64,000 nt of DNA from Octopus vulgaris. Its lineage: Eukaryota. The position numbers and the translations under genes are program-made. Location: positions 52,886,001 to 52,950,000 of the forward strand of contig OX597821.1 of NCBI GenBank assembly GCA_951406725.2, read 5' to 3'. This document shows positions 32,047 through 35,867 of this stretch, in pieces; within the stretch, counting starts at the first letter, position 1; each line of letters starts with the position of its first letter. Below the pieces are notes generated by a model, which did not search any database, was not told the origin of the DNA, and saw nothing but the letters and a program-made list of their open reading frames with translations.

Positions 32047-32082
<36 letters not shown>

Positions 32083-32303
32083 ATCAATATAGGGTGGCAA
32101 AAAAATTTTGTAGAATTCTTTTGCCACCAGCGGCCTAGTAGGAAAAAATTAAATAGTCATAAACTATTTTTACGTTCAACATCACAATCAAGGAACGGCC
32201 ATAATAGGCCATTCACCCACTAGAAATAACAGCCAAAAGCTTTAACCGCAAAATAACATTAATACCGTAAACCAGGAGAAAATTGAAAAACTTTTACCCT
32301 GTA

Positions 32304-32410
32304 ATTTCTTAGACGATGCACCGTTTCATCTACCGTTTAATGGTAAACTAACCTGATTAAATTAAAGCAAGCCAATCCACCATAGGCCCTTAGACTCATC
32401 AGTAAGAAAT
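32304..32410 (-). ncRNA. Type I hammerhead ribozyme (inverted copy)
   Basis: Reverse complement of the plus-strand motif; predicted cut after the C opposite position 32312. Confidence 0.85.
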
Positions 32411-33162
32411 AGCCAAATCGGAACAGATATTTTTCACGAGGCATTCCTCTTGCTACCTCGGCAATATCTGACCTAAAATTTTCAAATCGTCGCACTCGCG
32501 CCAAATTTATCGGCAGCAAATAAATATAAGCCACCGATTCCTTTACGGAACTAACCAGAAAATTCATAATTAATCAATATAGGTGGCAAAAAAATTTTGT
32601 AGAATTCTTTTGCCACCAGCGGCCTAGTAGGAAAAAATTAAATAGTCATAAACTATTTTTACGTTCAACATCACAATCAAGGAACGGCCATAATAGGCCA
32701 TTCACCCACTAGAAATAACAGCCAAAAGCTTTAACCGCAAAATAACATTAATACCGTAAACCAGGAGAAAATTGAAAAATTACAGGGTAAAAGTTTTTCA
32801 ATTTTCTCCTGGTTTACGGTATTAATGTTATTTTGCGGTTAAAGCTTTTGGCTGTTATTTCTAGTGGGTGAATGGCCTATTATGGCCGTTCCTTGATTGT
32901 GATGTTGAACGTAAAAATAGTTTATGACTATTTAATTTTTCCTACTAGGCCGCTGGTGGCAAAAGAATTCTACAAAATTTTTTTGCCACCCTATATTGAT
33001 TAATTATGAATTTTCTGGTTAGTTCCGTAAAGGAATCGGTGGCTTATATTTATTTGCTGCCGATAAATTTGGCGCGAGTGCGACGATTTGAAAATTTTAG
33101 GTCAGATATTGCCGAGGTAGCAAGAGGAATGCCTCGTGAAAAATATCTGTTCCGATTTGGCT

Positions 33163-33269
33163 ATTTCTTACTGATGAGTCTAAGGGCCTATGGTGGATTG
33201 GCTTGATTTAATTTAATCAGGTTAGTTTACCATTAAACGGTAGATGAAACGGTGCATCGTCTAAGAAAT
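33163..33269 (+). ncRNA. Type I hammerhead ribozyme, copy 1
   Basis: ATTTCTTA-CTGATGA-GTCTA[58 nt]TAGAT-GAAA-CGGTGCATCG-TC^TAAGAAAT. Helix I is 8 bp; predicted GUC cleavage after 33261. Confidence 0.88.
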
Positions 33270-33652
33270 TACAGGGTAAAAGTTTTTCAATTTTCTCCTG
33301 GTTTACGGTATTAATGTTATTTTGCGGTTAAAGCTTTTGGCTGTTATTTCTAGTGGGTGAATGGCCTATTATGGCCGTTCCTTGATTGTGATGTTGAACG
33401 TAAAAATAGTTTATGACTATTTAATTTTTTCCTACTAGGCCGCTGGTGGCAAAAGAATTCTACAAAATTTTTTTGCCACCCTATATTGATTAATTATGAA
33501 TTTTCTGGTTAGTTCCGTAAAGGAATCGGTGGCTTATATTTATTTGCTGCCGATAAATTTGGCGCGAGTGCGACGATTTGAAAATTTTAGGTCAGATATT
33601 GCCGAGGTAGCAAGAGGAATGCCTCGTGAAAAATATCTGTTCCGATTTGGCT

Positions 33653-33759
33653 ATTTCTTACTGATGAGTCTAAGGGCCTATGGTGGATTGGCTTGATTTA
33701 ATTTAATCAGGTTAGTTTACCATTAAACGGTAGATGAAACGGTGCATCGTCTAAGAAAT
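33653..33759 (+). ncRNA. Type I hammerhead ribozyme, copy 2
   Basis: Same motif; predicted cut after 33751. Confidence 0.88.
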
Positions 33760-34141
33760 TACAGGGTAAAAGTTTTTCAATTTTCTCCTGGTTTACGGTA
33801 TTAATGTTATTTTGCGGTTAAAGCTTTTGGCTGTTATTTCTAGTGGGTGAATGGCCTATTATGGCCGTTCCTTGATTGTGATGTTGAACGTAAAAATAGT
33901 TTATGACTATTTAATTTTTTCCTACTAGGCCGCTGGTGGCAAAAGAATTCTACAAAATTTTTTTGCCACCCTATATTGATTAATTATGAATTTTCTGGTT
34001 AGTTCCGTAAAGGAATCGGTGGCTTATATTTATTTGCTGCCGATAAATTTGGCGCGAGTGCGACGATTTGAAAATTTTAGGTCAGATATTGCCGAGGTAG
34101 CAAGAGGAATGCCTCGTGAAAAATATCTGTTCGATTTGGCT

Positions 34142-34248
34142 ATTTCTTACTGATGAGTCTAAGGGCCTATGGTGGATTGGTTTGATTTAATTTAATCAGG
34201 TTAGTTTACCATTAAACGGTAGATGAAACGGTGCATCGTCTAAGAAAT
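34142..34248 (+). ncRNA. Type I hammerhead ribozyme, copy 3
   Basis: Same motif with one C>T in the helix II extension; predicted cut after 34240. Confidence 0.88.
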
Positions 34249-34631
34249 TACAGGGTAAAAGTTTTTCAATTTTCTCCTGGTTTACGGTATTAATGTTATT
34301 TTGCGGTTAAAGCTTTTGGCTGTTATTTCTAGTGGGTGAATGGCCTATTATGGCCGTTCCTTGATTGTGATGTTGAACGTAAAAATAGTTTATGACTATT
34401 TAATTTTTTCCTACTAGGCCGCTGGTGGCAAAAGAATTCTACAAAATTTTTTTGCCACCCTATATTGATTAATTATGAATTTTCTGGTTAGTTCCGTAAA
34501 GGAATCGGTGGCTTATATTTATTTGCTGCCGATAAATTTGGCGCGAGTGCGACGATTTGAAAATTTTAGGTCAGATATTGCCGAGGTAGCAAGAGGAATG
34601 CCTCGTGAAAAATATCTGTTCCGATTTGGCT

Positions 34632-34738
34632 ATTTCTTACTGATGAGTCTAAGGGCCTATGGTGGATTGGCTTGATTTAATTTAATCAGGTTAGTTTACC
34701 ATTAAACGGTAGATGAAACGGTGCATCGTCTAAGAAAT
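34632..34738 (+). ncRNA. Type I hammerhead ribozyme, copy 4
   Basis: Same motif; predicted cut after 34730. Confidence 0.88.
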
Positions 34739-35121
34739 TACAGGGTAAAAGTTTTTCAATTTTCTCCTGGTTTACGGTATTAATGTTATTTTGCGGTTAA
34801 AGCTTTTGGCTGTTATTTCTAGTGGGTGAATGGCCTATTATGGCCGTTCCTTGATTGTGATGTTGAACGTAAAAATAGTTTATGACTATTTAATTTTTTC
34901 CTACTAGGCCGCTGGTGGCAAAAGAATTCTACAAAATTTTTTTGCCACCCTATATTGATTAATTATGAATTTTCTGGTTAGTTCCGTAAAGGAATCGGTG
35001 GCTTATATTTATTTGCTGCCGATAAATTTGACGCGAGTGCGACGATTTGAAAATTTTAGGTCAGATATTGCCGAGTTAGCAAGAGGAATGCCTCGTGAAA
35101 AATATCTGTTCCGATTTGGCT

Positions 35122-35228
35122 ATTTCTTACTGATGAGTCTAAGGGTCTATGGTGGATTGGCTTGCTTTAATTTAATCAGGTTAGTTTACCATTAAACGGT
35201 AGATGAAACGGTGCATCGTCTAAGAAAT
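35122..35228 (+). ncRNA. Type I hammerhead ribozyme, copy 5
   Basis: Same motif with two substitutions in the helix II extension; predicted cut after 35220. Confidence 0.88.
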
Positions 35229-35611
35229 TACAGGGTAAAAGTTTTTCAATTTTCTCCTGGTTTACGGTATTAATGTTATTTTGCGGTTAAAGCTTTTGGC
35301 TGTTATTTCTAGTGGGTGAATGGCCTATTATGGCCGTTCCTTGATTGTGATGTTGAACGTAAAAATAGTTTATGACTATTTAATTTTTTCCTACTAGGCC
35401 GCTGGTGGCAAAATAATTCTACAAAATTTTTTTGCCACCCTATATTGATTAATTATGAATTTTCTGGTTAGTTCCGTAAAGGAATCGGTGGCTTATATTT
35501 ATTTGCTGCCGATAAATTTGGCGCGAGTGCGACGATTTGAAAATTTTAGGTCAGATATTGCCGAGGTAGCAAGAGGAATGCCTCGTGAAAAATATCTGTT
35601 CCGATTTGGCT

Positions 35612-35718
35612 ATTTCTTACTGATGAGTCTAAGGGCCTATGGTGGATTGGCTTGATTTAATTTAATCAGGTTAGTTTACCATTAAACGGTAGATGAAACG
35701 GTGCATCGTCTAAGAAAT
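35612..35718 (+). ncRNA. Type I hammerhead ribozyme, copy 6
   Basis: Same motif; predicted cut after 35710. Confidence 0.88.
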
Positions 35719-35867
35719 TACAGGGTAAAAGTTTTTCAATTTTCTCCTGGTTTACGGTATTAATGTTATTTTGCGGTTAAAGCTTTTGGCTGTTATTTCT
35801 AGTGGGTGAATGGCCTATTATGGCCGTTCCTTGATTGTGATGATATATATATATATATATATATATA

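Follow-up and report, generated by a model that had tools for sequence, protein, structure and literature searches.

How did two copies of one repeat come to be joined head-to-head, and why does their junction lie almost upon a predicted ribozyme cut? The question is raised by a 3.8-kb insert at positions 32076-35842 of a 64,000-nt stretch of Octopus vulgaris DNA (the window), where it is flanked on both sides by (TA)n. The insert is built from tandem 489-490-bp units with a hammerhead motif in each complete unit, and no open reading frame (ORF) of at least 150 aa was found over it. The 2-kb bins containing it have a GC content of 0.35-0.36, under the 45% limit for animal non-LTR retrozymes. 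Unit positions are numbered from the first base 3' of the predicted cut (GTC^), which is position 1. The features are collected in Table 1. Elsewhere in the window, a frame at 63-803 on the reverse strand matches the ANF_receptor ligand-binding domain (E 2.5e-16) and is probably an exon of a receptor gene.

The first-pass annotation had described a direct arm starting 4 nt past the predicted GTC^TAAG, an AAA shared by both arms and a palindrome with arms of about 700 bp around a 14-nt spacer, and all of this is confirmed from the sequence. The direct arm (arm B) starts with AAATTACAGGG at 32777 (unit +5), so that only TAAG is missing after the predicted GTC^. The palindrome arms measure 704 bp, 32076-32779 mirroring 32794-33497 with three internal differences and one at the (TA)n edge. 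The outer end of the inverted arm (arm A) is the long fixed end of the family described below and that of arm B (unit 132) is the short fixed end. As the final 4 nt of arm A overlap the left (TA)n, its exact end lies at 232-236. Intact predicted cut sites have been read through six times in arm B and once in arm A. Target site duplications are unreadable in (TA)n.

Table 1. Features of the insert and its flanks (positions in the window; unit positions counted from the predicted cut).
Feature	Position	Strand	Remarks
Left (TA)n target remnant	32047-32079	.	overlaps final 4 nt of arm A
Arm A ('inverted')	32076-32779	-	704 bp; unit +22 to 490, then 1 to 236
15-bp hairpin (unit 184-219)	32093-32128	-	prediction; just inside the long end
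Arm A type I hammerhead motif	32304-32410	-	predicted cut 32312/32311, intact, read through
Arm A unit position 435 = C	32367	-	mirror unit has A (33206)
AAA microhomology	32777-32779	.	joins the inner ends of arm A (+22) and arm B (+5)
Arm B ('direct')	32777-35842	+	3066 bp, 6.3 units; unit +5 through to 132
Unpaired palindrome centre, 14 nt	32780-32793	+	TTACAGGGTAAAAG; unit +8 to +21, here in arm B only
First arm B hammerhead	33163-33269	+	cut predicted after 33261; CTGATGA and GAAA core, helix II long, helix III self-complementary
Further arm B hammerheads	33653-33759, 34142-34248, 34632-34738, 35122-35228, 35612-35718	+	
Arm B fifth unit, position 435 = C	35165	+	same base as arm A
Right (TA)n target remnant	35843-35867	.	

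The predicted type I hammerhead, open at helix I, is complete: it has an 8-bp helix I, CTGATGA, a 5-bp helix II that a 19-bp hairpin prolongs, the GAAA, a helix III that is short, and GTC. No Rfam hammerhead model matched at the curated score in the 64-kb window, a miss likely due to the long helix II. The hammerhead-constrained fold has an energy of -30.8 kcal/mol against -34.7 kcal/mol for the unconstrained one, and the minimum-energy fold is a different structure. Among 16 variants, hand-picked from 77 distinct ones to span the subfamilies, 96% of helix cells pair and nine double changes are found, and every slid control scores far lower; the relatedness of the variants inflates the shuffle control. 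The core is invariant across the 16 except at its N position. The two commonest variants have a helix III with 12 nt of self-complementarity (duplex -17.5 and -13.6). Dimeric hammerheads are described as cleaving poorly as monomers in the account of them given in PMC4209133. The self-complementary helix III fits this class, and much of the RNA would then stay uncut.

Judged by its sequence, the insert is a member of a non-coding hammerhead retrozyme family, dispersed and multicopy, that lives beside autonomous Penelope-like elements (PLEs). An autonomous PLE was considered for the insert itself and rejected, as it has no ORF with reverse transcriptase (RT) and GIY-YIG domains. The 2.8-Gb genome holds 2960 exact matches of a 22-nt unit motif, and by exact matching at least 795 long ends and at least 393 short ends are joined directly to (TA)n. 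We sampled 160 genomic stretches: the 40 best-scoring candidates (L005 and L030-L068, this locus included), a set biased towards full units; 40 of the 44 new places among the first 100 motif matches (L069-L108); 60 consecutive new places among 100 listed long ends (L109-L168); and the first 20 new places among 100 listed short ends (L169-L188). Arms were mapped to one natural unit and merged over subfamily indels, and for ends near the cut the mapping was repeated with 177 natural read-through stretches as reference. Arms with <85% identity or without a canonical outer end are excluded from the end statistics.

The outer ends of these insertions are not scattered. They cluster at unit 126-132 (short, B) and at unit 231-236 (long, A), and in stretches L030-L108, which are not end-anchored, 125 of 128 outer ends fall within the two classes. 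Two outward-facing arms are present in 119 of the 168 insertion groups. Of these, 107 pair A with B, in 12 one end is atypical, and A+A and B+B are both absent. Sampling anchored on A ends gives 44 A+B groups of 49, and sampling anchored on B ends gives 14 of 17. Groups with a single end comprise 30 A-only and 17 B-only cases and, because each end occurs alone, either can be the primary start. The two strands of (TA)n are equivalent, so the pairing of long with short would have to come from the enzyme-RNA complex. The long and short ends are offset by ~105 nt, and this offset is the family's version of the one-sided Penelope 'tail' as portrayed in PMC8557442 and PMC3846280. The Penelope-like behaviour noted by the first-pass annotation thus extends beyond this locus, with an inverted arm, a one-sided tail and an AT-rich target here, and (TA)n at the outer ends of the A+B groups.

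Older sister families with 73-87% identity were seen at L032:4742-5391, L145:781-1347, L125:2543-2995 and L142:5734-5911. The sister copies in L032, L145 and L142 are also long+short and head-to-head, and two of them adjoin a young copy in the same (TA)n. At L061:3775-4078 a short-end arm has many small deletions patched by TA-rich letters, and its partner arm is 99% intact.

The inverted arm had been ascribed to fold-back self-priming in the first-pass annotation, and self-priming is also put forward for Penelope inversions in PMC3846280, as far as that account goes. At this locus, long-arm cDNA would have reached the cut end, lost 4 nt, snapped its TTT back onto AAA, copied itself for 704 nt and then been joined or cut at the long end. 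The letters at the junction match the product expected of such a snap-back. The geometry is permissive here too, and this is where the locus is unusual: among 99 simple pairs, 24 allow arm A to have been made first and three, including this one, allow arm B. With a loop of up to 30 nt, 72 of the 99 pairs fit neither direction, and a loop of up to 100 nt still leaves 61. Containment of one arm in the other thus fails as a general rule. At this locus it holds geometrically but with sequence differences, arm A departing from its mirror unit at 164, 218 and 435 (3/469), two of which are homopolymer indels. The forced 3-bp snap-back is also unfavourable (+1.7 kcal/mol), and the copying would have to halt precisely at the other fixed end of the family.

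The arms elsewhere in the family also tell against copying of one from the other. Once the 105-nt offset is allowed for, arm A exceeds arm B in length in 21 of 78 unbiased simple pairs and falls short of it in 31, and an asymmetry of >50 nt is found at 44 of the 78 junctions. In the 15 single-pass pairs with both arms near the cut, arm B lies nearer to the cut in 12 while unit 132-236 is held by arm A alone, so that neither arm is contained in its partner. The +22/+5 junction points of this locus recur in L149, joined through a 44-nt templated insert, and the L149 arms of only 218 and 124 nt are too short for either to have copied the other. In L119 the +22 and +5 points are swapped between the arms.

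Some observations do lean towards fold-back. Mirror-like junctions, within 25 nt, number 29 of 78 across the family against 10.9 expected, and away from the cut they number 14 against 6.1 expected. Short templated inserts (L149, L146) show that 3' ends can re-prime locally. The mirror-like excess would be given by two RTs running off one broken RNA, by annealing at local palindromes or by occasional fold-back. With outer ends that are fixed and arms that are paired heterotypically, the origin proposed by the first-pass annotation for the inverted arm is not upheld, and we regard it as an unlikely account of this locus.

The two arms are nevertheless close kin. Arms of one insertion differ by 0.45%, which compares with 0.40% for units within an arm, and the partner arm ranks among the top three of ~150 loci in 53 of 77 cases; to judge from such sequence comparisons, both arms of an insertion derive from one source. 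At this locus the kinship has a twist. A C at position 435, found in none of 142 units of 46 other young loci, is shared by the inner unit of arm A and the fifth unit of arm B. Such sharing agrees poorly with both arms running off one RNA end, and to account for it sister RNAs, gene conversion or a polishing error must be invoked; the pattern points to sister RNAs or to conversion at a later time, more than to one end common to both arms. The priming register was sought in variants shared between arms at six loci, with offsets from the outer ends of +1, 0, -1, -1 and 0 and one ambiguous, by a hand estimate too few for significance.

The second half of the question concerns the cut. Taken alone, this locus is only suggestive, as one arm has a chance of ~8% of ending in +1 to +36 under uniform stopping (17.2/204). 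The first-pass annotation had proposed a check for ends gathering at the cut site across copies, and at the family level the coincidence of junction and cut does exceed chance. Inner-end stops were normalized to the number of times each position was passed. In the unbiased set 49 of 204 arms end in +1 to +36 against 17.2 expected, a rate ratio of 3.4, with a sharp edge at the cut. There is no upstream excess, 11 arms ending in -25 to 0 against 10.8 expected. Both arm types contribute (A arms, 26 against 8.1; B arms, 23 against 8.9). The +1 to +36 window was picked after the data had been seen, and a scan of all windows has its maximum there, a value reached in 0 of 2000 simulations. Both arms end near the cut in 15 of 78 pairs, against 6.0 in age-stratified shuffles (0/20000). 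Since they do so here too, which uniform stopping would give in <1% of pairs, a cut end was probably involved at this locus. When the unbiased set is restricted to its 42 young arms, the best window lies at 196, and the cut window holds 7 arms against 2.5 expected.

The two-end priming set out below could be correct and the pile-up still have another cause, namely stalling of the RT at the foot of the hammerhead or an A/T-rich patch that offers microhomology. Exactly +1 is the end of only 3 of 266 arms and most near-cut ends lie 5-36 nt past the cut, while helix I spans +1 to +8; the A and T runs of the patch recur in junctions. Moreover, the excess is significant in two-armed copies only (45 against 15.5), single-arm copies having no significant near-cut excess (4/23 against 1.8). 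Neither cause explains well why the edge falls at the cut, with -8 to +3 empty of ends in the unbiased set and the structure itself free of any excess, nor why two of the three arms at exactly +1 are joined blunt without microhomology (in L045). All 177 of the listed read-through stretches have GTC or GTA as the cut triplet, within a search pattern that itself demanded GT followed by C, A or T, and the helices covary. We hold stalling or patch microhomology to be an improbable source of the pile-up.

Least probable by far is that the palindrome is a fold-back read or an assembly artefact: long palindromes can arise as sequencing artefacts, and none of the short-read contig pieces listed from four runs spans 32779/32780, though pieces in the repeat fit several places and bridging is not expected; an artefact would mirror one end together with its flank, whereas here the arms are non-identical with two canonical ends and different unique flanks (the left one present in short-read contigs of all four runs, up to the (TA)n), and 107 groups on many contigs share this architecture.

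Ends near the cut are a minority. Against the 49 near-cut stops stand 199 cut sites that were read through, so most of the template would have been uncut multimer or circle and a minority cut-ended. We infer ribozyme activity in the template RNA indirectly, from the clustering of inner ends after the predicted cut. The cut sites that were read through bear no extra indels (6 per 3374 positions against 292 per 105746). Two arrays on different contigs, L031:3403-5930 and L037:3172-6157, have a 6-bp deletion (unit 272-277) in most units that is absent from one unit per array, a mosaic which implies copying from heterogeneous templates. A rolling circle of a single monomer is disfavoured by this mosaic and by the minority alleles, 79 of 209 of which match the majority allele of another locus against 52 by chance (maximum 71). 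Mosaic arrays argue for multimer templates over one rolled monomer.

The joints themselves are varied. Among 110 simple two-arm junctions, 32 overlap by at least 2 nt, 14 overlap by 1 nt, 15 are blunt and 49 have inserts. In L149, L146, L140, L092 and L119 the inserts, of 12-44 nt, are repeated copies of adjoining sequence. The repetitive templated inserts of the first four presumably resemble joins made by polymerase theta. The cleanest junction is at L045:4318/4319 (G000:C14 near 56,934,318), a spacerless perfect palindrome with both arms at the predicted cut and joined blunt.

Our preferred reading, which we consider likely, is that retrozyme inserts arise when a Penelope-type RT-endonuclease primes from both (TA)n ends at unit ~236 and ~131 and the two cDNAs are joined by microhomology. 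The enzyme, which would belong to a Penelope-like family resident in this genome, would cut both strands of a (TA)n tract, and cDNA would start at two RNA sites, one for each DNA end. The templates would be RNAs in multimeric or circular form, in some of which the ribozyme would have made the 5' end, and both primers would usually sit on the same RNA molecule or on sister transcripts. On reaching a ribozyme-made end the RT would run off at +1. The free cDNA 3' ends may then be trimmed, here by 4 and 21 nt, and anneal through TTT/AAA, and host end joining, probably of the polymerase theta type, would unite them. A broader proposition is that asymmetric double priming is Penelope-type integration as such, with one RNP and two start sites, one per end, on the same RNA, and that ribozyme-cut linear RNA is a real template in vivo. 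On this we are evenly divided.

Candidate sources of the enzyme exist in the genome. A GIY-YIG search gave many intact copies of a 781-aa frame with an RT, scoring just below the Pfam cut-off, plus a GIY-YIG domain at its C terminus. A 479-aa frame of no clear family lies upstream and overlaps it, making a two-ORF layout. This PLE also sits in (TA)n, with two ends 40 nt apart, and is long+short in all three two-armed copies examined (L209, L211 and L221) and in all five outward-facing pairs among 118 listed ends, L209 being counted in both sets. A DNA or pLTR similarity of the retrozyme unit to PLEs was found in none of 35 GIY-YIG stretches of 6136 candidates, so that the 781-aa-frame PLE shows the pairing rule and not a partnership. 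The young family of this PLE is seen at L217:2289-7510 and in L204-L222, with 519 short and 106 long ends by exact pattern. Upstream of single-arm retrozyme copies the flanks are mostly (TA)n and then unrelated repeats; no PLE-type ORF was found beside those inspected, the two longest neighbouring ORFs being APE-type LINE ORFs. Hammerhead motifs with a long extended helix II lie beside a PLE relative at L197:455 and in a reverse copy at 208, and a comparable motif lies near a PLE on the reverse strand of L212 near 1533. These motifs are a lead to the partner family of the retrozyme.

The tail, the inverted copy, the two start sites and the hypothesis linking retrozymes to PLEs are already known. 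Strict long+short pairing in retrozymes and the clustering of insertion ends at the cut were not found in the open-licence PMC and bioRxiv literature searched. The origin of inverted arms and one-sided tails, the role of the hammerhead in vivo and the identity of the retrozyme mobilizer are among the questions raised in PMC8557442, PMC11167929, PMC7229834 and 10.64898/2026.07.22.740005, as these sources frame them. The octopus family offers >100 independent and measurable insertion events in one genome, which tell two-end priming from self-priming and yield a quantitative sign of cut RNA as template. Two predictions follow: strict long+short pairing, and loss of the +1 to +36 peak with a dead ribozyme. 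If true, asymmetric double priming would replace self-priming and account at once for three traits of PLEs and retrozymes, namely their inverted copies, one-sided tails and tandem arrays, and retrozyme insertions would preserve in the genome a record of germ-line hammerhead cleavage.

How does this family compare with known systems? Animal retrozymes are described as head-to-tail arrays, linked to PLEs by co-occurrence and pLTR similarity (PMC7229834; 10.64898/2026.07.22.740005). As these accounts present the non-LTR retrozymes of animals, the octopus family resembles them in that its tandem units, a few hundred bp long, are non-coding and each carry a type I hammerhead, and also in its low GC, its dispersal and the presence of PLEs. 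Unlike those described there, it has two fixed ends, strictly paired head-to-head arms and inner ends that gather at the cut. For retrozymes, bioRxiv 10.64898/2026.07.22.740005 suggests that tandem arrays grow locally once inserted; the octopus arrays end at fixed sites, which points to insertion as multimers.

Twin priming of the L1 type was rejected as a candidate. In L1 twin priming the internal site at which the second primer anneals varies, and there is no overlap between the two parts, whereas here the second site is fixed and the arms overlap in sequence, often over several rounds. What the two have in common, on the description in 10.1101/2024.12.14.628481, is that both target strands prime, that the cDNAs are joined by microhomology and that a 5' inversion results.

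PLE insertions are the nearer relatives. PMC8557442 and PMC3846280, in their treatment of insertion structure, report an inverted 5'-truncated copy and a one-sided 'tail' of 30-40 bp, often at one end only, and explain the inversion by self-priming and the tail by resolution through the endonuclease. Head-to-head arms, one longer end, (TA)n targets and tandem copies are shared between PLE insertions so described and the octopus retrozyme, which differs from them in having no ORF, a tail of ~105 nt and many units in either arm. The geometry of its arms contradicts self-priming with endonuclease resolution as a general rule.

The biochemistry of a PLE also bears on two-end priming. In the in vitro experiments on Poseidon PAc reported in PMC11167929, both target strands are cleaved and extended, and two internal RT starts delimit the tail. 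The AT-rich targets, the two start sites and the extension of both strands are as in the octopus, and PAc is predicted to be a dimer. In the same experiments, as there reported, the start sites had no strand preference, the hammerhead was dispensable and no RNA reads ended at the cut. The octopus insertions, unlike PAc in vitro, use one start site per end and over-use ends close to the cut by ~3.4-fold.
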